Shown piece after piece: positions 7,898 to 47,291 of a stretch of 64,000 nucleotides of DNA; position 1 is the first letter of the stretch, and each line of letters opens with the position of its first letter. This DNA is from a phage. The stretch is taken from sequence record PZ445488.1. One strand, given 5' to 3'. The position numbers and the translations under genes are program-made. The notes under the pieces are model-generated. The model saw nothing but the letters and a program-made list of their open reading frames with translations, was not told where the DNA came from and made no database searches.

Positions 7898-7917
7898 AAT
7901 GGGACCGAAGTCCCATT
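7898..7917 (-). promoter_or_regulatory. UUCG-tetraloop RNA hairpin (AAUGGGAC-UUCG-GUCCCAUU) between regA and gene 43
   Basis: Perfect 8-bp inverted repeat read on the minus strand, no U-run after it; could be an RNA stability or translational-operator element upstream of 43. Confidence 0.3.
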
Positions 7918-7920
7918 GCT

Positions 7921-8289
7921 TTAATTACCAATTGTATATTTTGCTTTCAAAGTCCAGTCATCTTTCTGTTTAAAAGAGATAACACGGAAGTTATTAGTCA
8001 GGCCAAACAGATCTTCACGAGCAGAGTCTTCAATAACAATCAAGCCCCAGTCTTCAAGCAACTGAGCAATCGAATCACGACGCTGATAGTCTTCACCATC
8101 AATATCAACCTGACGTCCATCCATACGCAACATTTCTTTAAAGTGGACAATATAGTACTTACCTTGCTTTTGGAGGATATGACAAGACTGGTAAAGGACT
8201 TTATCTTTGTTATTAGCGATGCCCATACGGGTTAGAGTCTCTTTGACTTTCAGAAAATCTTCAGGGTTCTTCAATTTAATTTCAATCAT
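7921..8289 (-). CDS. regA: translational repressor RegA
   Basis: MIEIKLKNPEDFLKVKETLTRMGIANNKDKVLYQSCHILQK... matches T4 RegA (122 aa) when started at the internal ATG 8289; the track start at 8298 adds three residues. Confidence 0.9.
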   Translation of the reverse strand: MIEIKLKNPEDFLKVKETLTRMGIANNKDKVLYQSCHILQKQGKYYIVHFKEMLRMDGRQVDIDGEDYQRRDSIAQLLEDWGLIVIEDSAREDLFGLTNNFRVISFKQKDDWTLKAKYTIGN

Positions 8290-8291
8290 TT

Positions 8292-8855
8292 TTACCATTC
8301 CAATGCTAATTTTTTAAATTGTTTTTGTTCTTTTACGTTTTTAGTAACTTCTTTGAGAAATTCATCAGTGACCATGGCCTTCAGTTCTTTAAGGACTATT
8401 GGCAACTTGTTATTTTTTTCAAGGAGCCGCTTATACTCGGTAGCATCATTCATGTTGATTGTGTAATGTTTCATCAACAGTTTGATAACTAGTAACTCTG
8501 AAGTGTCTTCGACTAGTTTAGCCCATTTAGAGAATCGACGACCACGCGGAATTGCCGCCATCATATAGTTGAAGTGCGCTTCATCACTTAATTCAGAACC
8601 GACTAAGTTCATCATGTAAACGGCTGGCATACATTCTGGAAACTGTGATAATGAGTTCTCAACCATAAATTTTGAGTAGTCGACCTGAGCAATTGACATA
8701 GATTTCTTTTCATTAATAGCATTAATGATTTTAAAGAATTCATTCTCAGGTTTTTCTTTAAACATATCAGCACATTTTTGAATCGCATCAGCGTCATTAG
8801 ACTTCCATGCAATTTGGTGCTCGTTAAGCTGGACGTCATCATCGAATAAGTTCAT
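8292..8855 (-). CDS. 62: clamp-loader subunit gp62
   Basis: 187 aa; synteny between 44 and regA; ATG at 8855. Confidence 0.8.
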
Positions 8856-8856
8856 A

Positions 8857-9819
8857 TTATTTCCAAGTCAGTTCGCAGGTCAGTTGAAGAAGCATATACA
8901 TAACATGTAATTCAATATTACATGCTAGTCCATGAAACTTATTATTTTCGCCTGCAATTTCGTAAAGCGAAATAATACTTTTACCGGGTGCAACTTGGTC
9001 ATAACATTCTGAAACTAATTTATCGATGAACCATGAATAATCTGCAGCATATTTTGGAGCTAATGCACGAAGCTGTTTGATATCTTTGTTCTTCATTGCT
9101 TCGATAACATCAGAGACTGTGCCACGGTCATTAGTTACGATAGACAGAATACCTGCATCAAGAACACCTTTAGACGAGTACTGGTCTAATTGGCCAATTG
9201 TGCGACGAAAGTCTGGGAAGTTCTTTTTAACCAGAGCTGCAACAACTTTCATATCAGCGATTTCGATATTTTCGTTCTTACAGATTTCAACCATACGATG
9301 AATCATTTTCTTCATCATCGAGATTTTATCTTCTTCAGTCGGACGACCGAATTCGATAACTCGACAACGACTACGTAATGGTTCAATAATTCCATCAATA
9401 TTGTTAGCAGTGATAATAATAGAGCAGTTACTAGAGAATTCTTCCATAAACGTACGAAGGTGACGTTGTGATTCGGCAAGGCCACTACGGTCAAATTCGT
9501 CAATAACAATAACTTTAGGCTTGCCTTCCATTGAGACTGAACGAGCGAATGCAGTTAACGGACCACGCACAAAATCAATCTTACAATCAGAACCGTTGAC
9601 GAACATCATTTCGGCATTGATATCATTACATAATGCTTTTGCTACGGTTGTTTTACCTGTACCAGGAGAAGGAGAGTGCAAAATAATATGAGGAAGTTTT
9701 CCTTTAGATACTAAAGACTTGAATATTTCATGGTCATACGCAGGCAGAATACATTCGTCAATGGAAGAAGGACGATATTTCTGTTCTAGAATGTGTTCTT
9801 TGGAATTGATAGTAATCAT
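8857..9819 (-). CDS. 44: clamp-loader ATPase gp44 (AAA+)
   Basis: 320 aa; Walker [11 protein letters not shown], Walker [12 protein letters not shown] motif (PLRSRC); ATG at 9819. Confidence 0.92.
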
Positions 9820-9844
9820 GTAATTTTCCTCATTATCATTAAAC

Positions 9845-9862
9845 TGGAGGATTTCTCCTCCA
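9845..9862 (-). promoter_or_regulatory. RNA hairpin UGGAGGA-GAAA-UCCUCCA in the 45-44 intergenic region
   Basis: 7-bp inverted repeat followed on the minus strand by GUUUAAUGAUAAUG; possible attenuator or processing site. Confidence 0.3.
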
Positions 9863-9894
9863 TAATCGTACTACATTAAACGTAAAGCTTTGAC

Positions 9895-10581
9895 TTAGAA
9901 GTCGTGAGTAGAATCGGCTTCCATTGCAATAACATAACTTACTTGAGAGCTTTCAAACTTGGCTGCAACTTTATCACCAGCTCCCCACAACATTACTTTA
10001 TAGTTACCTGGCTGGATTTTCATATTAGCCATGTTGATTACGAAGTTAAAGTTGTTAGAACCATCATAATCGGTAAGAGTCAAAGAATACTTAGGACGAG
10101 TCAAGCCAGAATCTTCAACTTTATTGTAACCATTGATAACAATTTTACCATCTTTATTTGTAATAGCAATTGTATCAATCTGAAGACCACGTGAAACTCG
10201 AAGCAATTGTTGAAGGTCTTCGGCTTTAATTTCAGTAATCACAGAAGCCACTGGGAATTGAATTGGCTTATTAGGAAAAACAATGGTGCTCTTGTCGGCA
10301 GCAGGCCAATAAACTGTGGAACGTGTATCTGCAATTTTAATATTGCCATCAGTGTGCATTGAAATTTCAGCATCATCAGACACTAGACTCAAAATGCTTA
10401 AGAAGCTATTCAAATCATAAAGTGCTACGTCAAAATCAATTTCATCAGAGATATTTGCTTCTGCATAAGTGGTGCCATTAACTGCACGAGTCATAATAAA
10501 TTTACCTTGACTCAGCAGAATACCGGAGTTAATAGAGGCAAAGTTTTTCAGAATAGCGATAGTATCTTTAGACAGTTTCAT
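9895..10581 (-). CDS. 45: sliding clamp gp45
   Basis: MKLSKDTIAILKNFASINSGI... and C-terminal ALEADSTHDF match T4 gp45 (228 aa) from ATG 10581; the track start 10596 is a TTG extension. Confidence 0.92.
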   Translation of the reverse strand: MKLSKDTIAILKNFASINSGILLSQGKFIMTRAVNGTTYAEANISDEIDFDVALYDLNSFLSILSLVSDDAEISMHTDGNIKIADTRSTVYWPAADKSTIVFPNKPIQFPVASVITEIKAEDLQQLLRVSRGLQIDTIAITNKDGKIVINGYNKVEDSGLTRPKYSLTLTDYDGSNNFNFVINMANMKIQPGNYKVMLWGAGDKVAAKFESSQVSYVIAMEADSTHDF

Positions 10582-10623
10582 TTTATTTCCTTTCAAGACA
10601 ATTCAAAGTTTATAACAAATTTA

Positions 10624-11040
10624 TTATGCATCAACCATCTGCTTTTTAATAGCTTCAGGCAGTGATTCAATATATTCTGGAATTTTAGAAGCAACAATTT
10701 CGCCAGCTGCAATTAATTGTTCGTCTGCATCAACACAGTAGAAATCTTCCAGACGCTCAGAACCGTCTTTATCAAGAACGATTTTTCCACCGGCTTCAAT
10801 AGAATCTTTATAGTGCTTACGCATCAGATGAATCCACATATCAGATACATCGTTATCAATAAAACCATAAATCATAAAACGAGTTTCTTGTGGCAAAGAT
10901 TGAAGCTTTTTAGCACTTGCGTCATCACAATGCAGGACCCATGCTTTACGAACACGATTATGGTTATGCGGGTTAGCGTCAGTACGGATAGAAGTAACTT
11001 TCAGATCAGCAGCAGTGAAACCTTTAGCAGTAGTAAACAT
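10624..11040 (-). CDS. rpbA: RNA polymerase-binding protein RpbA-like (by position)
   Basis: 138 aa between 45 and 46 as in T4; assignment by synteny only. Confidence 0.45.
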   Translation of the reverse strand: MFTTAKGFTAADLKVTSIRTDANPHNHNRVRKAWVLHCDDASAKKLQSLPQETRFMIYGFIDNDVSDMWIHLMRKHYKDSIEAGGKIVLDKDGSERLEDFYCVDADEQLIAAGEIVASKIPEYIESLPEAIKKQMVDA

Positions 11041-11052
11041 ATTATTTCTCTC

Positions 11053-11253
11053 TTATTCGTAGAAGTCAGTAACTGTCCATGCGGAATTGCGATTAGACAT
11101 TATTTTATTATACTCATCTTTAAAAGCAGATTTGAGCATTTGTTCAGTAACAATATGTTCTTCACCTGAAAACGTATTGGTCAAAACATATTTTTTAATT
11201 TCAGGGACAACGAGAAGATGTTGTCCGGTTGAATACTCCATGTTGTTCTCCAT
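11053..11253 (-). CDS. hypothetical protein (66 aa; T4 45.2 position)
   Basis: ORF track; ATG at 11253; compact early array. Confidence 0.5.
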   Translation of the reverse strand: MENNMEYSTGQHLLVVPEIKKYVLTNTFSGEEHIVTEQMLKSAFKDEYNKIMSNRNSAWTVTDFYE

Positions 11254-11260
11254 TTAATTT

Positions 11261-11294
11261 GATGTGGTCATTATAACCACATCGTGTTAAAGCG
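11261..11294 (-). promoter_or_regulatory. candidate MotA-dependent middle promoter (MotA-box-like CGCTTTA, 12-bp spacer, TATAAT) with the -10 in the loop of an 8-bp palindrome
   Basis: Minus strand reads aaCGCTTTAacacgatgtggtTATAATgaccacatc; palindrome GATGTGGT/ACCACATC; sits directly upstream of the 11253 start. Confidence 0.4.
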
Positions 11295-11295
11295 T

Positions 11296-12984
11296 TTATG
11301 AAACAGTCATTACCGTAAATCGTCCAACTTTGCTCATCTGAAGATGTTGTCCATAACGTTGAGGGTCATGGTCTCGATGAGAGATAATGAACACATTAGT
11401 ATTTTGTAAACTTCCAAGAATGGTATCTATAGCCTTAACAGCCTCAGAATCGACAGCACCATCAAAAACCTCATCAAGAATCAGAGTGTTGATTTTAACG
11501 CCAGAGACCTTTTCAGCAATATCTCGCCATGTAAACAACAATGCGATATCGATACGTGCCTTTTCACCTTGACTAAATGAAGCATAACTGAACTCTTCAC
11601 GGCCACGTGATTTTATAGATTCATTGAATTCTTCGTCAATAGAAAACACGTAATCAGCTTCCATGATTTTAAGATAGTGGTTAATCTGCTTGTTGAACAG
11701 AGGCACATATTTTTTAATGATAGCACCTTTAATACCAGAATCTTTTAACATATCTGTGATAATACCACGATGGTATTTTTCAAGAACGATATCCGATTTT
11801 GTTTTAATGATTTTATCAAGTTCTTTTTGAAGCAAAGCTATCTCATCGGCGTGGTCGATAAATTCCGCCGAGGCTTGCTCTATTGCAGCTTTAACTTTCT
11901 TAGCTTTATCAATAGTGGCAATCATTGCTTGTTTCTTGGTACGGATATCGGATGCAAGGTCCTGTTTAGTCTTAACATTAGCTCGATATTCGTCCACTAG
12001 GACACTCAGATTATCTCTGTGGCAGGTAAGTTGCTCGAATGAGTGATTACATTCATGAAGCTTATCGGTAATCTTAGAGACAATAGGGTCACCCTGGTGC
12101 AACTGTGATGCGCAAGTAGGACATGTACCGCCATCATGATACATCTTAATAACTTTGTTATATGAGTCAATTTTAGATTTAATCAAGAATGCTTCTTGTC
12201 CGATCTTGTTGAATGCCTCAGTAGGGTCTTCGTCAAGAACGATATTAAGTAGACGCTCGTTAGCTTCTTCAATTTCTGCTTTTAATGAACGAGCTTCTTT
12301 GGCTAGGTCGTCATACATATTCTGTAGACGCGCTACATTATCGCCAGATAATTTCTTTTGACGTTCGATATTCTCGTTATAAATCTTAATTTGTTGGATA
12401 ATACCATCTTTCTTGGCATCGAGAACTTGTCCCTGGGAATTAAGTTCTCGAACTTGAGACTTATTGATTTTATCCATTTCAGCTAGTGTTCCAACTTCTA
12501 ATAAGTCTTCAACAAGCTTTCTGCGAGCAGGGGTGCTAAGAGCCATGAAAGGGGTATACCCTGCCGTCCCAAGCACAACGATCTGTTTAAAAGACGCGTA
12601 TGACATTCTGATGCTACGTTCAAATTCTTCTTGGAAGTCACGACTGCTGGCAGATTCATCAAGACGAACACCGTCAACGGAGATTTCGAAAATATTAGGC
12701 TTTTGGCCTCGTTTAATGAAGTATTTTTTATCATCGAATTCCATCCAAAGCTCAACTAAGAGCTCTTTCTTGTTCGTGCTATTAATGATTTGTCCTTTCT
12801 TAACATCACGAAATGGTTTACCGAAAAGTCCGAAAGTAATGGCTTCTAACATCGTAGATTTACCACCGCCATTTTTACCAGTGATTAATGTCTTTTGGAC
12901 TTTATCTAATTGGATATCAATAGGATTCCCACCTACCGACATGATGTTTTGATAACGAACACGATTTAATTTAAATGATTTCAT
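11296..12984 (-). CDS. 46: recombination endonuclease subunit gp46 (SbcC/Rad50-like ATPase)
   Basis: 562 aa; N-terminal Walker A ITGKNGGGKST, coiled-coil middle with CxxC hook (CPTCAS), C-terminal signature and Walker B; ATG at 12984. Confidence 0.92.
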   Translation of the reverse strand: MKSFKLNRVRYQNIMSVGGNPIDIQLDKVQKTLITGKNGGGKSTMLEAITFGLFGKPFRDVKKGQIINSTNKKELLVELWMEFDDKKYFIKRGQKPNIFEISVDGVRLDESASSRDFQEEFERSIRMSYASFKQIVVLGTAGYTPFMALSTPARRKLVEDLLEVGTLAEMDKINKSQVRELNSQGQVLDAKKDGIIQQIKIYNENIERQKKLSGDNVARLQNMYDDLAKEARSLKAEIEEANERLLNIVLDEDPTEAFNKIGQEAFLIKSKIDSYNKVIKMYHDGGTCPTCASQLHQGDPIVSKITDKLHECNHSFEQLTCHRDNLSVLVDEYRANVKTKQDLASDIRTKKQAMIATIDKAKKVKAAIEQASAEFIDHADEIALLQKELDKIIKTKSDIVLEKYHRGIITDMLKDSGIKGAIIKKYVPLFNKQINHYLKIMEADYVFSIDEEFNESIKSRGREEFSYASFSQGEKARIDIALLFTWRDIAEKVSGVKINTLILDEVFDGAVDSEAVKAIDTILGSLQNTNVFIISHRDHDPQRYGQHLQMSKVGRFTVMTVS

Positions 12985-13220
12985 ATGTATTCTCTTCGAA
13001 TGAAGTCCTCTACATATTTTAACATGTCATCCCTATCAGCAAAATATTCATCTAGTTCTGCATACATAACAACACCTGGGGCGTACTCACAGGTAACATA
13101 CATTGTTCCAAAGAAACGAGGAGTTGATTCCTCGTAATTCTCAGTCCATTCAACTATACCAATATAACCGTCACCAACACTAAATTCATGACGATGGATT
13201 TCATAATCAGTCTTCGTCAT
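12981..13220 (-). CDS. hypothetical protein (T4 46.1 position)
   Basis: ORF track frame; start moved to ATG 13220 (GAGG 9 nt upstream); the track start 13235 is TTG. Confidence 0.45.
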   Translation of the reverse strand: MTKTDYEIHRHEFSVGDGYIGIVEWTENYEESTPRFFGTMYVTCEYAPGVVMYAELDEYFADRDDMLKYVEDFIRREYI

Positions 13221-13464
13221 TATACGCATCCTCAATACACGCTTCAGCCATTTTAAGAATAGAGCCAGGAGTATCGTTGTCCATTATATTAAAGCTAAAT
13301 TCAATAGCCCAGTCGGTACAGACATGAACGGCTTTAACTTCATTGCCTTCAACGCGTAATGGCTCAATCCAATACTTGATAGTGTTCTCGAATCCATCAT
13401 CATCTTTAACGTCTATTTCAACTTCAAGCCCGAGCCCAGCATTGTTAAATTCATCTAAAGTCAT
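13207..13464 (-). CDS. hypothetical acidic protein (85 aa)
   Basis: ORF track; ATG at 13464 overlaps the gp47 stop. Confidence 0.5.
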   Translation of the reverse strand: MTLDEFNNAGLGLEVEIDVKDDDGFENTIKYWIEPLRVEGNEVKAVHVCTDWAIEFSFNIMDNDTPGSILKMAEACIEDAYNDED

Positions 13465-14480: not shown

Positions 14481-14526
14481 ATTATTTCCTCATTAGTTAA
14501 TTCATTCTATCATCCGTTTATAAAGC

Positions 14527-14550
14527 AAAAAAGGAACTCCGAAGAGTTCC
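14527..14550 (-). terminator. rho-independent terminator (GGAACUC-UUCG-GAGUUCC + U6)
   Basis: 7-bp stem, UUCG tetraloop, followed on the minus strand by TTTTTTGC; immediately 3' of the small ORF at 14550..14723. Confidence 0.6.
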
Positions 14551-14723
14551 TATCCACATAGTACACCATACAGAGGCTCATTTGAACTTTTAAATCGAAT
14601 GGGCTTGTATGTAATAGTTCCTTCGGCTTTAGCTTTATCATAAGACTCTTTAAAACGTCTCATTCTTTCTGCTTTGCCTTTACGGATTTTATCGAAATTT
14701 TCAGAAGTCGGGATGTTCGTCAT
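14550..14723 (-). CDS. small basic protein (57 aa)
   Basis: Hand-translated MTNIPTSENFDKIRKGKAERMRRFKESYDKAKAEG...; ATG at 14723; its stop lies within the terminator stem; below the ORF-track cutoff. Confidence 0.35.
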   Translation of the reverse strand: MTNIPTSENFDKIRKGKAERMRRFKESYDKAKAEGTITYKPIRFKSSNEPLYGVLCG

Positions 14724-15267: not shown

Positions 15268-15268
15268 A

Positions 15269-16920: not shown

Positions 16921-16939
16921 ATTATTTTCCTCTGTTATT

Positions 16940-16983
16940 TTATTATCCAACGAGAGCATTATACTCTGCTCTCAAGAGTTTGT
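16940..16983. repeat. 44-bp exact repeat, copy A (identical to 46351..46394)
   Basis: ttattatccaacgagagcattatactctgctctcaagagtttgt occurs identically about 29.4 kb away; contains TATAAT between inverted GAGAGC/GCTCTC. Confidence 0.85.
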
Positions 16984-16986
16984 GCG
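16958..16986 (-). promoter_or_regulatory. promoter-like element (TATAAT -10; degenerate -35 CGCACA) within repeat copy A
   Basis: Same -10 and spacer as the 46369..46397 promoter, but the -35 TTTACA is replaced. Confidence 0.3.
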
Positions 16987-17226
16987 TTATTTCGTGATAA
17001 GATAATGTAAATAGTTTGCTTGACGAACACTGATATCAACACCCATATCAAAGATACCTTTATAGAACGGGTATTTGTTTTCAGTAGAATCTAGACTAAA
17101 AGCCTTTCCGCCACAACTAACGGTAATAGCATCAGTTAAAGTGTCATATGCAAACTTAATAGTTGAGCCGTTCACTACGACTTCAAGACGTTTTTTCGAT
17201 GTAATAATGTCTAATTCTTGTTCCAT
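16987..17226 (-). CDS. hypothetical protein (79 aa)
   Basis: ORF track; ATG at 17226 with GAGGAAAA RBS. Confidence 0.5.
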   Translation of the reverse strand: MEQELDIITSKKRLEVVVNGSTIKFAYDTLTDAITVSCGGKAFSLDSTENKYPFYKGIFDMGVDISVRQANYLHYLITK

Positions 17227-17254
17227 GATATTTTCCTCATTTTAAGACGATAGG

Positions 17255-17284
17255 AAGATAACACTTCTTCCTACCATCGTAAAC
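17255..17284 (-). promoter_or_regulatory. early promoter candidate (GTTTAC, 18 bp, TATCTT) within palindrome TAGGAAGA/TCTTCCTA
   Basis: Minus strand reads GTTTACgatggtaggaagaagtgtTATCTTcctatc. Confidence 0.35.
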
Positions 17285-27807: not shown

Positions 27808-27834
27808 GTTTTACCTCCAGTAGTTGATAGGTCT

Positions 27835-27863
27835 ATAATAACATAACCATAGACCTTGTAAAC
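27835..27863 (-). promoter_or_regulatory. early promoter (GTTTAC, 17 bp, TATTAT) inside palindrome AGGTCTAT/ATAGACCT
   Basis: Minus strand reads GTTTACaaggtctatggttatgtTATTATagacctatc. Confidence 0.5.
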
Positions 27864-28290: not shown

Positions 28291-29292
28291 TTATTTCAGT
28301 AAAGTTACTTCAGAGATTTCCTCCCAACCATCTTTATCAGTTGAAATAAAATCTGCTACATAAAGAGCCGTACGTAATGATACATTGCGAAGACGAGATA
28401 CGTTAGCCTTCATCCAGGACAATGCTTTGTACGTTTCAGCATCAGTCAAGCCACGTTTCTGCATCATGTCAGTAGATAATATTACATCTTCAACTCGAAC
28501 CATAATCTCTTCATTAGAGTGTACTCCAAGGTCCAAATACACTGAACGAGATACTAAAGCTTGAAGGTGTGGAGCAAGTTTCGAACCGCGTTCTAACTCT
28601 TTATCAATATCAACGTTTGTAATGAAAACGATAGTACCTTCAAACTCAAATTCTTTATCGATACCCTTATCCTCGAGATAAGATGACGCAGTGCTCCAAC
28701 AAACTTTGCGTTTATCTCCGGTATCTAATGCTGCTTTAAGAAGGTTCAGGATGTCCATATCTGAGAATACGTCAACGTCATCGATTAAGAGAACGCTGTC
28801 TTCATCACGGTTGAGCCAAAGTTGTTCGTAAAGGCCAATACCGGAGATTTTACCATTAATGCTTTTGTATTTGATGAAACCATTATCATTAGCATTATTA
28901 AGTGCTTTATCCAGAGAATACGTCTTACCAATACCAGCTGCACCTGAAATAATGAGTGAACGAATTTTGCCATCAATAATGCCATTCGTCATCATGTTCA
29001 TTACTTTAAAGCGTTTGTTGATACGAGTTTTCATATCTTCAGTGCTTTCAACAACTGCAACTGGTGACGTCTCAACTCCTTCCATTACGATGTCTGATTT
29101 GAAGACCCATACTCCACGTTCAGAACCATCAATCATAACGAAAATTTTACCGTCACCTAAGTGGGAACATTCAGGATTAAGCTTTGCCGGGAACCATGTC
29201 TTTGTGGCAACATAAGAACCAGAGATTTCGTTATTACGATAGATACCTTTTTTGATTTGAACGTTGAACATTTTATTCTCCAATTTACTCAT
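28291..29292 (-). CDS. P-loop NTPase (AAA-like ATPase)
   Basis: 333 aa; Walker A GAAGIGKT and Walker B LLIDDVD; ATG at 29292. Confidence 0.6.
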   Translation of the reverse strand: MSKLENKMFNVQIKKGIYRNNEISGSYVATKTWFPAKLNPECSHLGDGKIFVMIDGSERGVWVFKSDIVMEGVETSPVAVVESTEDMKTRINKRFKVMNMMTNGIIDGKIRSLIISGAAGIGKTYSLDKALNNANDNGFIKYKSINGKISGIGLYEQLWLNRDEDSVLLIDDVDVFSDMDILNLLKAALDTGDKRKVCWSTASSYLEDKGIDKEFEFEGTIVFITNVDIDKELERGSKLAPHLQALVSRSVYLDLGVHSNEEIMVRVEDVILSTDMMQKRGLTDAETYKALSWMKANVSRLRNVSLRTALYVADFISTDKDGWEEISEVTLLK

Positions 29293-29309
29293 TTCGTTTC
29301 GATAGGTCT

Positions 29310-29338
29310 ATAGTATCATATCCTAAAAGCATGTACAC
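29310..29338 (-). promoter_or_regulatory. early promoter (GTGTAC, 17 bp, TACTAT) followed by GACCTATC palindrome arm
   Basis: Minus strand reads GTGTACatgcttttaggatatgaTACTATagacctatc. Confidence 0.45.
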
Positions 29339-29367
29339 TACTTTTTAAAAATATTTTAACCCCCTAA

Positions 29368-29385
29368 GGGGACCCGAAGGTCCCC
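29368..29385 (-). terminator. UUCG-tetraloop hairpin GGGGACC-UUCG-GGUCCCC (terminator or stability element)
   Basis: 7-bp GC-rich stem 3' of the 29390..29656 gene; near-identical hairpins at 47276..47291 and 7898..7917. Confidence 0.4.
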
Positions 29386-29389
29386 ACAT

Positions 29390-29656
29390 TTACTTATCAC
29401 ACTTAGCAACATAATTAGGCATATCACAGAATACAGAGCGAGTAACTACTCGTCCCTTTGACCATGCTTCAGTTGCTTGTCCGGCCGTGCTATTAATATA
29501 GCTTGATTTAATGTTCTCAATACCCTGAGAATGTGATGCATTTACCGAACCGTTAGAAGGCGCAGGAGCCGGTGGTAACCAGTCTCCTGCGCCCGTGGTA
29601 GCACCAACAGAGAATGCCATCATTACTGCGAATAAACCAATTACTAATTTTTTCAT
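29390..29656 (-). CDS. small secreted/periplasmic protein (88 aa, signal peptide)
   Basis: MKKLVIGLFAVMMAFSVGATT... signal-peptide-like N-terminus; ATG at 29656; a late promoter motif lies 28 nt upstream. Confidence 0.55.
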   Translation of the reverse strand: MKKLVIGLFAVMMAFSVGATTGAGDWLPPAPAPSNGSVNASHSQGIENIKSSYINSTAGQATEAWSKGRVVTRSVFCDMPNYVAKCDK

Positions 29657-29683
29657 ATTTACCTCAAGTTAATGGTTATTTAT

Positions 29684-30673
29684 CTATTTATAGTAAGAAT
29701 TATGATTTTCGAGATAGACTTGCTCAAGGAAATCATCCCAGAAACTCATATCTACTTTTTGTTGCATACCATTCTTGGCAGCTTGTTCTGACGCATGTTC
29801 AACTTGGTCAACGATATCTTCTAGGAATTCTTGTACAGTTTTAAACGTATGTTTACCAAGCTTAACATCGAGAATAAATGGAGCATCTTGAAGTGGGTAA
29901 ACCAGGTCGCCGGTTTTGTAAATTTCCAATAATTGAAGTCCACCACGACATGCATGACTCAATGCTTTCCAGTCAATACCTTCGTTAGCTTCTGCCTTAC
30001 GAGCACGTTCACCATAGTTCTCTTCCAGTTTAACCAGGATGGCATTGAACTCTTTATTGGTTAACGTGTCTTGGAATTTACGGTCTAACAGATTATAGAA
30101 TGTTTGCTTACCTGTTTTCTCGTTTTCGGTTTCAACCCACGAAGCAAATTCACCTACAGGCAGAACATTCTTCATATGTGATAAACGAATTACTGCACCA
30201 TTATCAAAGTATTGTCCCCATTCATTAGAACGTTTAAGGGCTTGACGAAGAACAGCCAGTCGAGAACCCTTGACACCGTATTTAGAAGCTTGCTTACGGA
30301 CATACCCTAAATAAGATTTCATGTTAGTGGTATAGAAACGAGACCTGTTATCTTGAATATACTTCCATACATCAGGCAAATCAGATTTAACTACTAGACT
30401 TGGTGGAGTGTGAAGCATATCTAATGCGACGGTTTCACCATCCGCAGCTAGTTTAAAGAAATATTTGAGACTATACAACTCATGGTCTACGTCGTCTTTT
30501 GTGTTCTTAGAAGATGTGTTATTCGTGTTCTTGCTCATGTGTTCTTTAACGTTACCGGTCAAGATATCACGAGCATGAGGGACATAAATTTCTTTAAAAT
30601 CGACGTCAGATTCAGGAGTAGACGTTCCATAAAGGTGGCTACCAAAGTAGCTTTTCATAATTGTTTTCATCAT
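29684..30673 (-). CDS. predicted nucleotidyltransferase (Pol-beta superfamily GS...DxD motif)
   Basis: 329 aa; N-terminal YFGSHLYGTSTPESDVDF fits the minimal nucleotidyltransferase signature. Confidence 0.5.
   Translation of the reverse strand: MMKTIMKSYFGSHLYGTSTPESDVDFKEIYVPHARDILTGNVKEHMSKNTNNTSSKNTKDDVDHELYSLKYFFKLAADGETVALDMLHTPPSLVVKSDLPDVWKYIQDNRSRFYTTNMKSYLGYVRKQASKYGVKGSRLAVLRQALKRSNEWGQYFDNGAVIRLSHMKNVLPVGEFASWVETENEKTGKQTFYNLLDRKFQDTLTNKEFNAILVKLEENYGERARKAEANEGIDWKALSHACRGGLQLLEIYKTGDLVYPLQDAPFILDVKLGKHTFKTVQEFLEDIVDQVEHASEQAAKNGMQQKVDMSFWDDFLEQVYLENHNSYYK
29685..29692 (-). promoter_or_regulatory. late promoter motif TATAAATA (minus strand)
   Basis: Exact T4 late-promoter octamer 28 nt upstream of the 29656 ATG, overlapping the end of the upstream gene. 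Confidence 0.45.
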
Positions 30674-31864: not shown

Positions 31865-31999
31865 TTTACCATACTCGTTTCAATAAGATTCACTATGCCG
31901 TTTACCATGTTATAAGTAAACATCGGATAATTGTATTGTACTACAACATAAGCGATAAGCAAAAGTTTCATTTTGTTCTCCGTTCATTTTGGTAGGACT

Positions 32000-32029
32000 A
32001 CTATAACATAATCCTACCAAGATGTAAAC
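32000..32029 (-). promoter_or_regulatory. early promoter (GTTTAC, 18 bp, TATAGT) inside palindrome GGTAGGA/TCCTACC
   Basis: Minus strand reads GTTTACatcttggtaggattatgtTATAGTagtcctacc. Confidence 0.45.
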
Positions 32030-32478: not shown

Positions 32479-32489
32479 TGATAGATGCC

Positions 32490-32516
32490 AAAAAGCCCCA
32501 ACCATAAGGAAGGGGC
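32490..32516 (-). terminator. rho-independent terminator (GCCCC-UUCCUUAUGGUU-GGGGC + U5)
   Basis: 3' of rI; its stem is nearly identical to the terminator at 47968..47995. Confidence 0.6.
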
Positions 32517-32523
32517 TAGTAAA

Positions 32524-40261: not shown

Positions 40262-40502
40262 CTCGGTCCCATGATTTGGCCATTAATTCGGACATAAATT
40301 CTTCAATGCGCGTTTCTTTAGATGGACTTTCACTATTAGAGACCACAAGTTTGTAATCTGCAATAGGACAGAACATATCAAGGTCCGTATTAAGGTCGTC
40401 TTTGATTTTTTCTTCTGACACATCTTTATCGTATGTGTACAGATAACTATCACATGATTCTGATTTAATGTAAATTGCTATACTCATCTCAAATTCCTGC
40501 AT
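40251..40502 (-). CDS. hypothetical acidic protein (83 aa)
   Basis: ORF track. Confidence 0.45.
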   Translation of the reverse strand: MQEFEMSIAIYIKSESCDSYLYTYDKDVSEEKIKDDLNTDLDMFCPIADYKLVVSNSESPSKETRIEEFMSELMAKSWDRDDE

Positions 40503-41661: not shown

Positions 41662-41662
41662 A

Positions 41663-41968: not shown

Positions 41969-41997
41969 AATATTCTCCTCATGTTTTAATAGGACTA

Positions 41998-42026
41998 CTA
42001 TAACATAGTCCTATCAGTTTGTACAC
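41998..42026 (-). promoter_or_regulatory. early promoter (GTGTAC, 17 bp, TTATAG) within palindrome ATAGGACTA/TAGTCCTAT
   Basis: Minus strand reads GTGTACaaactgataggactatgTTATAGtagtcctat. Confidence 0.45.
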
Positions 42027-42227
42027 TTATTTTGACATTTCTTCGATGTCACGACGATACCCATCACGAACTTCACGAAGAGCTTCAAGGCCACACATAG
42101 GCTCGATACCAGTAATGTGAACTTGATTAATCTGATACTCTACATCTTCTAACTGAGCGAAAACATAACGACGTTCTGCTGCACAACCAGGTTTAGCTTT
42201 ACCGAAACGTTTATTCAAAGTAGTCAT
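42027..42227 (-). CDS. hypothetical protein (66 aa)
   Basis: ORF track frame from ATG 42227 (GGAG RBS). Confidence 0.45.
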   Translation of the reverse strand: MTTLNKRFGKAKPGCAAERRYVFAQLEDVEYQINQVHITGIEPMCGLEALREVRDGYRRDIEEMSK

Positions 42228-42265
42228 TTTTATATCTCCATTCACTCATTTGTTTTGATAGGTCT

Positions 42266-42295
42266 ATAGTATCAACAACTACAGACCTTGTAAAC
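42266..42295 (-). promoter_or_regulatory. early promoter (GTTTAC, 18 bp, TACTAT) + GACCTATC arm
   Basis: Minus strand reads GTTTACaaggtctgtagttgttgaTACTATagacctatc. Confidence 0.5.
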
Positions 42296-42307
42296 TGTTT
42301 TGTGAAA

Positions 42308-43264
42308 TTATTTGAAAGGTTTTACCATATGAAAGTTTTGTTTGAAACGCTTGACGTAATCGTCGTGTCCTAAGCTTTGGTACATACTTACTACTTTGCT
42401 ATAATTTTCCCAAGCGAACTCACGGAACCATCCTGATGTGATTGATGTACAGACCTTTTCAAGGGCCATCATAAAACTATCACGTGGATGGATTTCAAAG
42501 TTATTAGGAATCTGAGAACGTTCTAACGCTAGTACACATGATTCTTCGTATACGCCGGCCAATTTGACCATTTCTGGTAATGATTCGAACTTCTCGCGTG
42601 AGGTCATGACTTCAGAACCATCTTTCATATAAAATGTATACGCTGGACGGTCTGTTAGTGCAATGGCTTCATGAATAGTATCATGGTCATATGTATAGAT
42701 GTCATCTTTAAAGAACGCACTTTTAGAAGTGTCAAGAACTGGGTGAGCATAATTCAAGGTTTCTTTCTGGCGTTTCAGCATAATTTCAGTAAGTTCATCG
42801 TTCAGTGTAACACCTTTACCACGAAGATACTGAATATGGTTCATAGTCTTTAAAAAGAATGGATTATTTTTCTTGAAACGATGAGACATCTTAATTGCAA
42901 GACATATCTCAGGAGTTGCCCAGTAAAACCCGTTCAAACGGTCTTTAGTCAAATTTTTCTTGGCGTATTTTAAAAGGTCATAAGAAGACGTGAAATCTTC
43001 AGGAGTGAGTTCACCGACTAGTTCGCGAACGTTAGTGATAGCCGGAACGATGTATGCTTCAAAATGAGTTTCGCGTCCATTATGGAAGCATTTGAAAACT
43101 TGGACATCAGGGTTATCTTGGTGAACATATACACCCATCATTTGATTTTTGAATGCATTCCAAGAACCTTGGTCCGCAATAAAGTCCCAATCACTATTTT
43201 TAATAGCGCTAGAATCAATAAGACCGTGATAGTGAAGTGCACGAGAACCAATAACTAACATCAT
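42308..43264 (-). CDS. hypothetical protein (318 aa)
   Basis: ORF track; weak nucleotidyltransferase-like GS...DWD pattern, not called. Confidence 0.55.
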   Translation of the reverse strand: MMLVIGSRALHYHGLIDSSAIKNSDWDFIADQGSWNAFKNQMMGVYVHQDNPDVQVFKCFHNGRETHFEAYIVPAITNVRELVGELTPEDFTSSYDLLKYAKKNLTKDRLNGFYWATPEICLAIKMSHRFKKNNPFFLKTMNHIQYLRGKGVTLNDELTEIMLKRQKETLNYAHPVLDTSKSAFFKDDIYTYDHDTIHEAIALTDRPAYTFYMKDGSEVMTSREKFESLPEMVKLAGVYEESCVLALERSQIPNNFEIHPRDSFMMALEKVCTSITSGWFREFAWENYSKVVSMYQSLGHDDYVKRFKQNFHMVKPFK

Positions 43265-43292
43265 AATATTTTCCTCGGATTAATTCATTAAC

Positions 43293-43532
43293 TTAAATTT
43301 CGCGACATGCGATATTATATTCATCCCAGAGGTCGTCATGTGAAGCCTCTACCAATGGAACGATTGTGCCGTTTATGTCTTCATTATAAGGGCAAATTGT
43401 ACAGTGCGCATCTTCGAATCGGATGTCTTTGTGTTCAGATTTTTTATAACGCATATCGAATATCTTTGCAAACTTTTCACGAGTAATAGTTTTAGCAACT
43501 ACTTCGGTTCCGATACTTTCGTAATAAATCAT
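43293..43532 (-). CDS. hypothetical Cys-containing protein
   Basis: ORF track frame from ATG 43532 (GGAG 7 nt upstream); an in-frame ATG at 43544 lacks an RBS. Confidence 0.45.
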   Translation of the reverse strand: MIYYESIGTEVVAKTITREKFAKIFDMRYKKSEHKDIRFEDAHCTICPYNEDINGTIVPLVEASHDDLWDEYNIACREI

Positions 43533-43561
43533 TGTGGACTCCATTTGTTTTGATAGGACTA

Positions 43562-43590
43562 CTATAACATAGCCCTATCTTGTTGTAAAC
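43562..43590 (-). promoter_or_regulatory. early promoter (GTTTAC, 17 bp, TTATAG) within GATAGG-CTA palindrome
   Basis: Minus strand reads GTTTACaacaagatagggctatgTTATAGtagtcctatc. Confidence 0.45.
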
Positions 43591-43594
43591 TGTT

Positions 43595-43792
43595 TTAGCA
43601 AGAATAACTAGATGATACCCAGCCTTGAACAGTGATACTATTGTGGGATAATGAGATCGCGTCCTGGAGATTCAGACCTGCGTTATCTTCAATCCACAAT
43701 GTAACTTCTTCACGCTCTTCGGTTGCAATCTGGAACAGGTTTTCCAGGGCAGCTACTGCCGTACGTACAGCACAATCTAATTCACGAGACAT
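43595..43792 (-). CDS. small protein, member of a tandem paralog family (C-terminus WVSSSYSC)
   Basis: ORF track; shares its C-terminal motif with the next two ORFs. Confidence 0.4.
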   Translation of the reverse strand: MSRELDCAVRTAVAALENLFQIATEEREEVTLWIEDNAGLNLQDAISLSHNSITVQGWVSSSYSC

Positions 43793-43801
43793 ATGATTTC
43801 C

Positions 43802-44074
43802 TTAACAAGTGTGAGAAGATGCAACCCAACCACCATCTTCAAGGCTCAGGTTGTAGTCGTATTGGTAAACGTCAGCCCATTCAGCCTGGCCGTTTTTTGT
43901 ACAACGTTCAAGATCGGCTTTAAGATGTCCGGGTGAATGATAGGTTCCACCCATGCCATAAGCTGGATACAAGTTGAATGTTGTGTTTTGTTTATCAGCA
44001 ATTTCTTTGGCAGCCTCAATAGCTGCATAGATTTTTGCTACAGCTTCAGCCAGTTCGGTTTGTTCTTTAGACAT
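43802..44074 (-). CDS. small protein, tandem paralog (C-terminus WVASSHTC)
   Basis: ORF track. Confidence 0.45.
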   Translation of the reverse strand: MSKEQTELAEAVAKIYAAIEAAKEIADKQNTTFNLYPAYGMGGTYHSPGHLKADLERCTKNGQAEWADVYQYDYNLSLEDGGWVASSHTC

Positions 44075-44083
44075 AATGATTCC

Positions 44084-44389
44084 TTAGCACAACGCAGAAG
44101 ACGAAACCCAAGCACCTTCAGTAATAACGTATCCATTACCTTCACGCTTAACATCGCCGCCATTATTTTCAATTTCATCTTTCATCCACTGGGATACGAT
44201 TTCACCCTTAGGATAATAAGTACGACCGCTACCATAATCACCTACAGAAAATGATACGGCATATTGGTCTGCGATCTTTGTTGCTTCTTCTTCGATACGT
44301 TCAGCTTGATTCAGAAGTTTATAAATTGCATCTGAAGCGGATTTGGCATCATTAAACTCTGGTACTTTAATTTCAATAATCTTACTCAT
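44084..44389 (-). CDS. small protein, tandem paralog (C-terminus WVSSSALC)
   Basis: ORF track. Confidence 0.45.
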   Translation of the reverse strand: MSKIIEIKVPEFNDAKSASDAIYKLLNQAERIEEEATKIADQYAVSFSVGDYGSGRTYYPKGEIVSQWMKDEIENNGGDVKREGNGYVITEGAWVSSSALC

Positions 44390-44745
44390 TTTCTACATTC
44401 CTTAATAAAGTTTTCGATTGTTTCATTTTCACGTCTAGCTAGGAGTTCATTATAACTAATCATTTGAGAAGCGTAAACCTTTTTATTTTTCTTGTTGTGG
44501 TTTATAAAATCGTAGTAAAAATAGACTACAGTAAAAAATGATGCGATGGATGCAAAGGCTTGGGTATACCGTAAGTCCTGCCATTGGTCTGTGAATCCAC
44601 CAGTGTTCCCTATAAATCCTAACACAACGCCGTCAATAAGAAATCCAACTAATCCAAAGGCAAATCCCATGCCAATACTCATAATAAAAATTAGAATGTT
44701 CTCACCAAGAGAAGGCCATACGGTTAAGAGTTGAGGCTTTTGCAT
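44386..44745 (-). CDS. membrane protein (119 aa)
   Basis: ORF track; hydrophobic core. Confidence 0.45.
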   Translation of the reverse strand: MQKPQLLTVWPSLGENILIFIMSIGMGFAFGLVGFLIDGVVLGFIGNTGGFTDQWQDLRYTQAFASIASFFTVVYFYYDFINHNKKNKKVYASQMISYNELLARRENETIENFIKECRK

Positions 44746-45149
44746 CTTATTTCCTTAACGAATTCCATAGCTTCTTCATATTCATACTTTTTAACAGCTT
44801 CATCATACTGAGCTTGGGCTTTTGCGCACTGAACTTTCCATTCTCTTAATCGGGCTCTGTGATGACGTCCTTGGTACCAATATCCCATCCAGTTAATAGG
44901 CATTAATAAAAACGGTACAATAAGTGGTGCGACGAACATTAATGAAAATGCTGCATCGGACGATATAACTTCACTAGAATCTAAAACGGCTCCTATAATC
45001 ATAAAGATTAAAAATGCTAAAGCTAAAATAGGGCCAAATAGTACTTCATTTGGGATTAATTTACGCTTGTATTCATACGCCCAGGGCTTACTTGGCATGT
45101 ACAGGGTTGGCTTTGACATATTCTCTACATTCCATAATAAATTGCTCAA
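44724..45149 (-). CDS. membrane protein (start uncertain)
   Basis: ORF track; overlaps the upstream ORF, so an internal Met (about 45098-45119) is likely the true start. Confidence 0.45.
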   Translation of the reverse strand: MSNLLWNVENMSKPTLYMPSKPWAYEYKRKLIPNEVLFGPILALAFLIFMIIGAVLDSSEVISSDAAFSLMFVAPLIVPFLLMPINWMGYWYQGRHHRARLREWKVQCAKAQAQYDEAVKKYEYEEAMEFVKEIRCKSLNS

Positions 45150-45705
45150 GGATTAAATTGTTAGTGAAATTAGGACTAACAACCATAGTTTCATAAAGCG
45201 CATCAATAGAACTTAAAGCATCAACTCTTTTAAGCAAAGGCTTGCCTTCATACATAGTTTCAGAATCGACGATTAACGTAAAGTAGTATTTTTTATTATC
45301 GACTAGAACTTCTGTATCGATATAAAACATATTAGACCTCAGAAGCTTATCTCTAAAACCATAATAATCTTCAGAGCGTTCGCTGATATATTCCCATTCA
45401 GTGTTTAAACAACAAACAGACCACGTAGGAGCAACGAAATCAGTGAATCTAATATCATGGTCTGCAACTAGTTTAGCAATAGCTCCGATATCATTAATCA
45501 TGATACCTGGGGCTAATAAAGATTTTCGGTTATTTGCATATTCAGTTGTCTCATAAGAAGACGACCAGTACCATTTACGTCCAGTTGCAACATATCGTAA
45601 TGAATCAACTAAAGACGTAGGTGGATTTACCTTATTTCGGAACTCTTCGAACATTGAGTCAATATCATTATTTTGGTTTCGCATGTTAACTCCTTTATTA
45701 TCCAA
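45088..45705 (-). CDS. hypothetical protein (205 aa)
   Basis: ORF track. Confidence 0.5.
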   Translation of the reverse strand: MDNKGVNMRNQNNDIDSMFEEFRNKVNPPTSLVDSLRYVATGRKWYWSSSYETTEYANNRKSLLAPGIMINDIGAIAKLVADHDIRFTDFVAPTWSVCCLNTEWEYISERSEDYYGFRDKLLRSNMFYIDTEVLVDNKKYYFTLIVDSETMYEGKPLLKRVDALSSIDALYETMVVSPNFTNNLILEQFIMECREYVKANPVHAK

Positions 45706-45733
45706 AAGGAGGACCGGAGTCCTCCGTATTATT

Positions 45734-46327
45734 TTATTTCAAAGAGTTAATATATTCTTGTACATCAGCAGAAGTGGTTTCGACACCGGTTGGAGTGCCA
45801 TTGAACGTTTCAACACGAGTCAGAGTGTCTTCGATATCAACCTTGGTCAGTGCAGCGATTTCAATTACATCATCAGCCGTAGAGATACCAAGGGCATTAG
45901 CTGCTCGAGTTTCACGAATGTATTCGAGTTTGATTGCCAGGTTCTGACGAGCATCGTCAAGTTCAACCACCTTACGAGCAATTTCAATTCGCATAGCGGC
46001 ATACCCGTCAGCTTTTGTATTAAGTTGTTCGGCAGTTCGACGATACAGAAGACCAAGCTTAGCATGCATAGTAACATCTTGTCCTTCAGCCAGGAGCTTA
46101 CGAATTTCACGTTCCTTAGAAGCGGCTTGCTTGTTCTTTTCATTAACAAGTTCGCGAATACGTTTTTCTTCGTTAATAGATTTAACAGAAGCCGTTTTTA
46201 GTTCTTTGATTTGGGTAATCAACTTATCTGCAGCTGCGTTATACTGTTCTTCGACAGTCAGATTTTTAGCCATAACAGTACCCAGTTTAGTGCGGATGAA
46301 TTCAACAAGTTTCTTCAGTGTGTTCAT
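45734..46327 (-). CDS. coiled-coil protein (PspA/IM30-like pattern, tentative)
   Basis: ORF track frame from ATG 46327 (AAAGG RBS); largely heptad-like, Ala/Lys/Glu-rich. Confidence 0.5.
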
Positions 46328-46350
46328 ATTATTACCTTTCAATTGGTGGT

Positions 46351-46394
46351 TTATTATCCAACGAGAGCATTATACTCTGCTCTCAAGAGTTTGT
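46351..46394. repeat. 44-bp exact repeat, copy B (identical to 16940..16983)
   Basis: See copy A. Confidence 0.85.
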
Positions 46395-46397
46395 AAA
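46369..46397 (-). promoter_or_regulatory. early promoter (TTTACA, 17 bp, TATAAT) with the -10 between inverted GAGAGC/GCTCTC
   Basis: Minus strand reads TTTACAaactcttgagagcagagTATAATgctctcgttgg. Confidence 0.5.
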
Positions 46398-46625
46398 TTA
46401 TTTTTTAATCAAATTAACATAAAACTTGGCGTCTTCCGGGTGCATTCCTTCGCAGTATTCTTCAACCATGAACTTCTTAACAGCTTCATAAGGACCACTC
46501 AGATTAAGCTCAGTTGTCCAGAACTTGGAATCTTGTACTGAATCGATACGAACTTCAGGGTGACGGTTGCGAATAACTTCTTCTGTGTATTCATAATCAA
46601 CGACATCAATACTAACTTTAGCCAT
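46398..46625 (-). CDS. hypothetical protein (75 aa)
   Basis: ORF track; ATG 46625 with AGAGGAGAAAC RBS. Confidence 0.45.
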   Translation of the reverse strand: MAKVSIDVVDYEYTEEVIRNRHPEVRIDSVQDSKFWTTELNLSGPYEAVKKFMVEEYCEGMHPEDAKFYVNLIKK

Positions 46626-46654
46626 TTTGTTTCTCCTCTTGATTTGATAGGTCT

Positions 46655-46683
46655 ATAGTAACACCGTCCATGGTGTTTGTACA
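46655..46683 (-). promoter_or_regulatory. early promoter (TGTACA, 17 bp, TACTAT) + GACCTATC arm
   Basis: Minus strand reads TGTACAaacaccatggacggtgtTACTATagacctatc. Confidence 0.45.
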
Positions 46684-47187
46684 TCATTTATTTTTAATTT
46701 TGCAAATTTTTCCAGCTTCGATACATGCAGCATAGATGATGCTCTGGGCAATTTTATTGCTAGTAGACCTTGCAATCACACTAAGAACAATTTCTTTTTC
46801 TTCACCACCACAACCCCAGGACCTTTGCTCATGAGTACCTTTAACTACGGCTGAAACTTCAACAGAACGTCCGCCATCAGAAGTTTTAACATCTACAACC
46901 CAATCGCCATCTTTCTCTTCAACCTGTGGTTTATCCCAAGAAATACTAATATATGATTCACTGTCAATAGAAGTCGCCGGGTTTTTCTTTACTGTAAGGC
47001 CTTCACTTTCCAGCCATTCAATAGTATTTGCGCATAAATCAGAAGAACACCTCATCGGAAACCGGCAAGATTTTTCACCTTTAGCTGCAGTGTTATACAT
47101 CTTTTCTAAAATACGCTTTTGCACGTTTTTAAAAATAGTTTCAGCAGATTCTTCAGATTTTTTATTCAGTTCAGTGTAAAGACTCAT
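46684..47187 (-). CDS. hypothetical protein (167 aa)
   Basis: ORF track frame from ATG 47187 (AGAGGAAAAT RBS); the track start 47376 would read through the promoter and terminator. Confidence 0.5.
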   Translation of the reverse strand: MSLYTELNKKSEESAETIFKNVQKRILEKMYNTAAKGEKSCRFPMRCSSDLCANTIEWLESEGLTVKKNPATSIDSESYISISWDKPQVEEKDGDWVVDVKTSDGGRSVEVSAVVKGTHEQRSWGCGGEEKEIVLSVIARSTSNKIAQSIIYAACIEAGKICKIKNK

Positions 47188-47215
47188 AATATTTTCCTCT
47201 GTGGTTGATAAATCT

Positions 47216-47244
47216 ATAGTATCACATCTAGGGAAGAAGTAAAC
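47216..47244 (-). promoter_or_regulatory. early promoter (GTTTAC, 17 bp, TACTAT)
   Basis: Minus strand reads GTTTACttcttccctagatgtgaTACTATagatttatc. Confidence 0.5.
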
Positions 47245-47275
47245 AACTTTTTCAGTAAGTTGTAGACCCCCTAAT

Positions 47276-47291
47276 GGGGACCGAAGTCCCC
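47276..47291 (-). terminator. UUCG-tetraloop hairpin GGGGAC-UUCG-GUCCCC (terminator or stability element)
   Basis: 3' of the 47297..47923 gene; paralogous to the hairpin at 29368..29385. Confidence 0.4.

Follow-up and report, generated by a model that had tools for sequence, protein, structure and literature searches.

Intercistronic C(UUCG)G hairpins of an RB69-like phage as likely leaky terminators and barriers at RNA 3′ ends

Introduction

Why does nearly the same small hairpin stand behind several unrelated genes of one phage? The question arises in a stretch of phage DNA of 64,000 nucleotides (record PZ445488.1; "the window" hereafter means this whole stretch), where an earlier note had pointed out recurrent UUCG-tetraloop hairpins, one of them between regA and gene 43. 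Around the four hairpin sites treated here, Escherichia phage CEV1 matches the window at 99.9–100%, and some 150 further genomes of Mosigvirus (the RB69 group) match the same stretches at 95–98%; on this comparison the window can be assigned to an RB69-like phage. The minus strand carries the genes around all four sites, so that plus-strand CGAA loops become UUCG in RNA. We consider it likely that the hairpins are intercistronic C(UUCG)G stem-loops of T4-like phages, serving as leaky terminators and as barriers that protect RNA 3′ ends. The hairpin class is already known, since Tuerk et al. 1988 (PNAS 85:1364); what has to be settled is what its members do at each of these sites, and whether the copy in front of gene 43 is the translational operator that the earlier note took it for.

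UUCG hairpins directly follow stop codons on the sense strand

Both strands of the 64 kb were scanned for TTCG loops closed by stems of 5 bp or more, which returned four strong hairpins, every one on the minus strand and at the positions given in the earlier note. A fifth hairpin of the UNCG type, with a UCCG loop, had escaped the earlier note.

Site 1, 7898–7917, minus strand: AAUGGGAC-UUCG-GUCCCAUU, 3 nt past the regA stop codon (7921–7923)
Site 2, 29368–29385, minus strand: GGGGACC-UUCG-GGUCCCC, 4 nt past the stop codon of an 88-amino-acid (aa) open reading frame (ORF)
Site 3, 47273–47294, minus strand: AAUGGGGAC-UUCG-GUCCCCAUU, 2 nt past the stop codon of a 208-aa ORF
Site 4, 14532–14551 (with tail 14525–14551), minus strand: AGGAACUC-UUCG-GAGUUCCU, then UUUUUUG; overlaps the stop codon of an a-gt.2-like ORF, upstream of gene 47
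UCCG copy, 45708–45725 (with tail 45702–45725), minus strand: GGAGGAC-UCCG-GUCCUCC, then UUUU

All four UUCG stems are Watson-Crick paired over 7–9 bp and close the loop with a C-G pair. Each of these hairpins is present in predicted minimum free energy (MFE) structures, and the predicted energies of the isolated hairpins are −11 to −14 kcal/mol. Their recurrence, as the earlier note had held, is not random: counting C-G-closed UUCG hairpins with stems of at least 6 bp, we observed 4 against 0.12 expected, with a maximum of 1 in any of 300 dinucleotide-preserving shuffles, and a chance origin was rejected on this test. Neither strand of the 64 kb holds a further hairpin of this kind beyond sites 1–4. 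The bias in strand is equally plain, as 4 of the 9 CTTCGG hexamers on the minus strand form such hairpins and none of the 18 on the plus strand does (27 in total). Two details of the earlier description were revised: the stem given as GGGGAC(C) is that of site 2, whereas the stem of site 1 is UGGGAC, and the interval 47276–47291 is the core of site 3, whose full hairpin is longer.

The stop codon of a minus-strand gene (regA, the 88-aa ORF, the 208-aa ORF and the a-gt.2-like ORF) lies 0–4 nt before each of the four hairpins, and this placement on the sense strand directly after a stop, found in 4 of 4 cases, is the pattern reported in T4. There, C(UUCG)G hairpins form on the sense strand only (PMC7165471), and UUCG is frequent in intergenic stem-loops such as terminators (PMC1702504); a passage of PMC4371310 has CUUCGG hairpins first found in T4 mRNA, and one in PMC8948821, citing Tuerk et al. 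1988, calls T4 intergenic regions especially rich in them. The hairpins of the window share with their T4 counterparts the loop, the closing pair, the intergenic sense-strand placement and the phage group; nothing essential differs, and the stems differ by compensatory changes.

Sites 1, 2 and 3 resemble one another beyond the stem, aligning over about 40 nt that include GTAAkTAAAk upstream. On their 3′ side they continue with AUUUGG (site 1), UUAGGGGG (site 2) and AUUAGGGGG (site 3), and the 8 nt past the GC stem contain only 2–3 U. Three copies therefore lack a U-run, where the earlier note had counted two.

Structure rather than sequence is conserved between regA and gene 43

Counted from the gene 43 AUG (7839), the hairpin of site 1 occupies the interval 59–78 nt upstream. 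Its sequence is identical in RB69 and PhAPEC2, and it is the positional orthologue of the T4 regA–gene 43 hairpin, AAGGGGC-UUCG-GCCCCUU. We compared it across 80 loci encoding RegA relatives, and T4. Among phages whose RegA is about 60–99% identical (loci L002–L043 and L067), one module stands directly upstream of gene 43 in every locus except L042. Its order is stop codon, stable tetraloop hairpin, few U, usually (GGAG)TATAAT, a second hairpin, Shine-Dalgarno sequence and AUG, and it is kept whether regA or an extra inserted ORF precedes. In the window, the part of the module past site 1 reads as follows.

7886–7896, minus strand: GGAGUAUAAUA, directly 3′ of site 1, holding TATAAT (7887–7892) and GGAG
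7852–7867, minus strand: second hairpin, identified below as the gp43 translational operator by its sequence; AGAC-AAUAACUC-GUCU, 16 bases, 13–28 nt upstream of the AUG
7844–7850, minus strand: gene 43 Shine-Dalgarno sequence AAGGAAA, following the second hairpin

The stem of the first hairpin is rewritten from phage to phage: GGGAC/GUCCC, GGGGC/GCCCC (T4), GGAGCC/GGCUCC, GGGAG/CUCCC, AAGGCC/GGCCUU, GGGCC/GGCCC and GCGGG/CCCGC all occur among the orthologues. The loop is mostly UUCG, with UACG, UCCG, GAAA, UUAC and CGUG as variants. The covariance check that the earlier note had proposed, run at this site, bore out conservation of the hairpin in related phages: across 16 distinct sequences 95.3% of alignment cells are paired, and both sides have changed in 7 of 8 pairs. 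The covariation score of 0.655 compares with 0.19 for column shuffles (0 of 500 reach it) and with a maximum of 0.24 when the partners are slid by 1–3 columns. Given the compensatory changes in the stem and the swaps of the loop, selection at site 1 acts on a stable hairpin structure and not on a particular sequence.

The TATAAT element lies 5–9 nt past the hairpin in most orthologues of site 1, and we infer that it is the −10 box of a putative gene-43 promoter. A σ70 −35 box is absent in the window, the best hexamer at 17–18 nt spacing matching at 2 of 6 positions. In distant relatives (loci L012–L014 and L037–L041), TGCTAT-N11–12-TATAAT or TAAAAT stands 3′ of the hairpin before gene 43, which reads as the layout of a MotA-dependent middle promoter; in the window, the loop region GACTTCG itself is 13 nt from TATAAT, in the position of the MotA box of these relatives. 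A middle-type promoter thus seems more likely here than one of the σ70 −35 type. Transcripts starting at this putative promoter, 3′ of site 1, would be without the UUCG hairpin. Our literature search found no text confirming a mapped proximal promoter of gene 43.

Could site 1 nonetheless be an operator? The earlier note had proposed a translational operator upstream of gene 43, and one might extend this to all copies as protein-binding sites through which gp43 or RegA would control translation. It is true that gp43 is an autogenous translational repressor (PMC3014915) and that site 1 falls within the gene 43 leader of read-through transcripts. However, the gp43 operator of T4 and RB69 is a described element (Tuerk & Gold 1990; Petrov & Karam 2002; reviewed in PMC3014915), and in RB69 it is another hairpin, of 16 bases with UAAC in the loop and with its top 10 bases identical to those of T4 (PMC3014915). 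The second hairpin of the module, at 7852–7867, has the same 16 bases in length, the UAAC loop and the match to the published operator over the top ten bases, and on these grounds we take it to be the true gp43 operator; its T4 counterpart at the same place is GAGCC-UAAUAACU-CGGGCU. Its 8-nt loop, AAUAACUC or AAUCACUC, is conserved across orthologues, and the hairpin is contiguous with the Shine-Dalgarno sequence. The UUCG hairpin shares this intergenic region but is an element of its own: it stands farther upstream, away from the ribosome-binding site, and has a loop of another kind, with 4 nt. Because its stems covary and its loops swap to GAAA, UACG, UCCG and others, nothing in it is conserved for recognition. 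The conserved TATAAT of the inferred promoter separates the two hairpins, unrelated genes also have such a hairpin behind them, and of the CUUCGG tetraloop it has been written that "No proteins bind to it" (PMC4371310). Taken together, the variable sequence, the documented operator elsewhere, the inferred promoter and the latter statement put the operator idea out for practical purposes, and we regard it as highly improbable.

Site 4 and the UCCG copy resemble canonical terminators

Two of the five hairpins combine a GC-rich stem with an immediate U-tract, U6 at site 4 and U4 at the UCCG copy, and a terminator scan called both on the minus (sense) strand; in the structure prediction their z-scores are −4.2 and −3.1, respectively. 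Site 4 is identical in RB69 and the UCCG copy in both RB69 and PhAPEC2, and the annotation of PhAPEC2 lists both as ARNold terminators. By these features they are to be classed as canonical intrinsic terminators, in agreement with the earlier reading of GGAACUC-UUCG-GAGUUCC as one. Upstream of gene 47, 4 of 15 other-phage loci carry different hairpins with U-runs. Compared with the intrinsic terminators of E. coli and its phages, all copies share the GC-rich hairpin past a gene, but a full U-tract is confined to site 4 and the UCCG copy, and the class-defining U-tract is missing in sites 1–3.

Separate from these, terminator-like repeats of family D17 occur at 32485–32518 and 47964–47997 (minus strand), with the form AGCCCC-UUCC-(GAAA or UUAU)-GGUU-GGGGCU, an internal loop and then U5–6.

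Sites 2 and 3 belong to promoter cassettes in variable regions

The surroundings of sites 2 and 3 follow a common plan, in which the hairpin is succeeded by (A)UUAGGGGG, an A/T-rich run, an early promoter, a Shine-Dalgarno sequence and ATG.

29360–29385, minus strand: site 2 with its tail, hairpin then UUAGGGGG (29360–29367)
29310–29358, minus strand: early promoter GTGTAC-N17-TACTAT and AT-rich stretch, downstream of site 2 and before an nrdC.10-like gene; repeat family D5, orthologous in RB69 and PhAPEC2
47267–47294, minus strand: site 3 with its tail, hairpin then (A)UUAGGGGG
47216–47244 (feature 47185–47244), minus strand: early promoter GTTTAC-N17-TACTAT, downstream of site 3; repeat family D4
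47185–47199, minus strand: Shine-Dalgarno sequence GAGG and ATG of the next gene, downstream of the site 3 promoter

This is the arrangement of the published promoter-early stem-loop (PeSL) cassettes and their promoter-middle variant, PmSL (Arbiol et al. 2010, PMC2839356; Comeau et al. 2014, PMC4122927), with which it shares the order stop, stem-loop, AT-rich stretch, early promoter, Shine-Dalgarno sequence and ATG. The promoters of sites 2 and 3 fit the cassette form TTTACW-N17-TAYWAT (PMC4122927), and the early-promoter repeat family is present in the window in at least 10 copies (families D1–D5 and D10). Cassettes and sites also agree in lying in variable regions where ORFs are gained, lost and replaced. 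In the window this is seen in the promoter repeats, in a shuffle at site 2, in a close relative with a deletion-like difference there (locus L084, below) and in site 3, whose hairpin was not found in the syntenic stretches of RB69 and PhAPEC2. We therefore read sites 2 and 3 as the stem-loop halves of PeSL cassettes, an assignment made by sequence comparison. Site 1, with its TATAAT and the MotA-box-like element of its relatives, resembles PmSL. A text search found no mention of RB69 in PMC2839356 and PMC4122927, and the stem consensus GGGRC with a CUUCGG loop and UUAGGGGG tail is not among the PeSL stem-loop consensus forms quoted from them.

Site 2 offers the clearest view of cassette exchange. 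Relative to RB69 and PhAPEC2 (window 29280–29700, minus strand, against L242 27925–28345 and L001 23960–24380), the tail and promoter are orthologous and the stem is different; an unrelated ORF, the one of 88 aa (29390..29656) with a signal-peptide-like N-terminus, is inserted before the stem-loop, and RB69ORF102c is lost, the junction lying inside the repeated promoter sequence TATAGACCTATC. In some close relatives, L084 for example, the small ORF and the hairpin are both missing. The cassettes in front of nrdC.10 orthologues have other stems (AAAAGGCC, AGGAACC, AAGGGCC and AACCUCC), nearly always a CUUCGG loop and often a full U6 tract. The terminator scan also flagged a second possible fold here, in which GGUCCCC-UUA-GGGGGUU would form at the expense of the site 2 stem; in the MFE prediction it is the UUCG hairpin that is retained.

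The site 3 hairpin has exact counterparts in p000v and PECP20. The syntenic stretches of RB69 and PhAPEC2 that were scanned hold no UUCG hairpin, and JS98-like relatives have GGAGAC-UUCG/UUUG-GUCUCC followed by UUUUAGGGGG. In loci L083 and L104 (IMG/VR metagenome 3300030021), which are probably one phage, an identical 27-mer, GGGGACCTTCGGGTCCCTTTAGGGGGT, occupies the positions of both site 2 and site 3, an observation suggestive of gene conversion across some 18 kb between the two cassettes. Together with the likeness of sites 1–3 over some 40 nt, it hints at copy-to-copy exchange.

Near site 3, p000v (L243 120–400, compared with window 46620–46700) has an extra 55-aa ORF flanked by early-promoter repeats, which would be another promoter-bounded insertion or deletion.

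A proposed capping role at RNA 3′ ends and its alternatives

How might these hairpins act? We propose that each would be transcribed as the last bases of the upstream message, right past the stop codon, and would fold exceptionally stably. Where a U-tract follows, as at site 4 and the UCCG copy, it would work as an ordinary factor-independent terminator; where the tract is short or eroded, as at sites 1–3, it would be at most a leaky terminator or attenuator and mainly a barrier. After read-through and a cut downstream, 3′→5′ exonucleases would halt at the hairpin, leaving the upstream message with a stable 3′ end, separated from the next transcription unit. Each U-poor copy also makes up the leading half of a larger module. 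In the case of sites 2 and 3 the module joins the hairpin to the AT-rich stretch and the repeated early promoter of a PeSL cassette, which would double as a point of recombination where genes are shuffled; in the case of site 1 it consists of the hairpin, the TATAAT of the inferred gene-43 promoter, the gp43 operator hairpin and the ribosome-binding site. In bacteria, 3′ stem-loops such as terminator or REP hairpins shield mRNAs from polynucleotide phosphorylase (PNPase) and RNase II, and by analogy the U-poor copies may act in the same way. The preference of the earlier note for a role in RNA stability or processing over simple termination is plausible on this account and agrees with the T4 literature; its alternative of protein-binding operators does not stand.

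A plainer account would make all copies efficient intrinsic terminators and nothing more. GC-rich hairpins right behind genes are what it expects; U-runs and terminator predictions go with site 4 and the UCCG copy, and tracts of U4–U6 with several orthologues of sites 1–3. In addition, PeSL stem-loops reportedly terminate effectively, one having been tested in a lacZ fusion (PMC2839356, in which promoter and terminator activity was measured for the RB49 and phi1 cassettes only). But the scarcity of U past the stems of sites 1–3, which the scan left uncalled on the sense strand, argues against it, as does the situation in T4, where the expression of downstream genes depends on transcripts that run on into them from early promoters farther upstream, and where the 3′ ends that have been mapped are taken to mark stable RNA, not termination sites (PMC6024815). 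We hold this account to be rather improbable. The main selected role might instead be exerted at the DNA level, with the cassettes serving as short repeats for recombination and the RNA hairpin being secondary. PeSL cassettes have indeed been proposed to mediate gene shuffling (PMC2839356, PMC4122927), and the shuffle at site 2 relative to RB69, the absence of ORF and hairpin from L084, the alignment of sites 1–3 and the 27-mer shared by two sites of one metagenomic phage all fit that proposal. Against it, the compensatory stems, and the restriction of the extra-stable tetraloops to the sense strand, speak for RNA structure as the object of selection, and the surroundings of sites 1 and 4 are conserved core regions of stable gene order; we consider a primarily DNA-level role unlikely, if still worth weighing. 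The stems vary among the orthologues of sites 2 and 3, and several of these have full U4–U6 tracts, in keeping with the capping role that we favour.

Several points weigh against the proposed combination of leaky termination and protection. How the two are divided at these sites is our inference, and we found no Term-seq study of T4 in the literature. The terminator scan calls sites 1–3 on the antisense strand only; we gave these plus-strand candidates little weight, since only the minus strand has the UUCG loop, and the calls arise because the sense sequence upstream is A-rich. With its stop codon 0–4 nt before the hairpin, a terminating ribosome would hold the 5′ arm open, and the hairpin could fold only once the ribosome has been released. 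The orthologues used for covariation were picked by presence of the hairpin, a bias that we judge to be small because nearly all loci covering the region upstream of gene 43 had it. Finally, a model of barrier and terminator leaves unexplained why the U-poor copies are followed by a conserved G-rich tail (UUAGGGGG).

That tail is specific to its setting. The octamer TTAGGGGG occurs only twice in the window, at 29360–29367 and 47267–47274 (minus strand), both times directly 3′ of a hairpin (sites 2 and 3), and the tail is kept while stems differ (RB69, PhAPEC2, L102 and L103); its GGGGG aligns with the GGAG 3′ of site 1. When IMG/VR was scanned for CTTCGG-N4–9-TTAGGGGG, the matches listed were mostly chance occurrences in unrelated contigs, and the informative ones among them were a few T4-like cassettes; in at least 5 contigs GGGGG forms an outer stem with CCCCC from the 5′ side, unlike in the window.

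One use for the tail, additional to capping and not opposed to it, would be as part of a processing signal: RegB or another endonuclease would cut in GGAG or GGGGG, the hairpin would cap the 3′ end so produced, and a cut at site 1 would free the gene 43 message. The RegB/S1 consensus is GGAGRAYARAA (PMC3014915, PMC1702504), which GGAGUAUAAUA resembles, fitting at positions 6, 7, 8, 9 and 11 (A at 6, 8 and 11; U at 7) past the GGAG that some orthologues lack. RegB processing stimulates gp43 synthesis in T4 (PMC3014915), relatives of the window phage encode regB, and the tail persists through changes of the stem. Yet some orthologues of site 1 have GUAG, AGAG, GGGG or UGGG in place of GGAG while TATAAT persists, GGGGG is not a described RegB site, and RegB cleavage at the regA–43 GGAG is putative only, so that we view such a signal as doubtful. 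With still less confidence, as a long shot, one may see in the U-poor hairpin and its UU(A/U)GGRGG tail a distinct unit, either a signal for pausing, termination or processing that is independent of a U-tract, or the core of a cassette that copies itself by gene conversion; the latter might bring along stop codons in two frames, a 3′ cap for the gene upstream and a promoter for the next. The persistence of the tail, the alignment of sites 1–3 and the 27-mer found at two sites are the points to be cited for it. Should the tail be functional, it would be relevant to the way in which T4-like phages define RNA 3′ ends where a U-tract is lacking.

Beyond annotation, the importance of these hairpins is small. 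They indicate that an RB69-group phage keeps the classic T4 arrangement, with tetraloop hairpins capping messages and terminator–promoter cassettes in variable regions, and they allow the true gp43 operator to be located correctly. Site 1 also illustrates clearly how a short hairpin evolves in nature by compensatory changes, and site 2 how genes are shuffled by way of cassettes.

Other repeats and RNA features in the window

Rfam, searched at gathering thresholds over the whole window, matched two tRNAs alone, and no curated family covers the UUCG hairpins.

48665–48738 and 48745–48816, minus strand: two tRNA genes
31989–32020, 41987–42016, 43552–43579, 50280–50309 and 50608–50637, minus strand: inverted repeats over a −10 box
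27829–27856, 42260–42288 and 17246–17278, minus strand: related inverted repeats

The inverted repeats are of 11–13 bp, for example TGATAGGACTAT-GUUAUA-GTAGTCCTATCA, and cover the −10 box of an early-promoter repeat that starts GTTTACA; they look like a PeSL variant in which the stem-loop overlaps the −10 box. A 78-nt repeat of 82% identity, at 16926–17003 and 46337–46414 (minus strand), holds a TTTACA-N17-TATAAT promoter whose −10 box falls in the loop of the hairpin TGAGAGCA-GAGUAUAA-UGCUCUCG.

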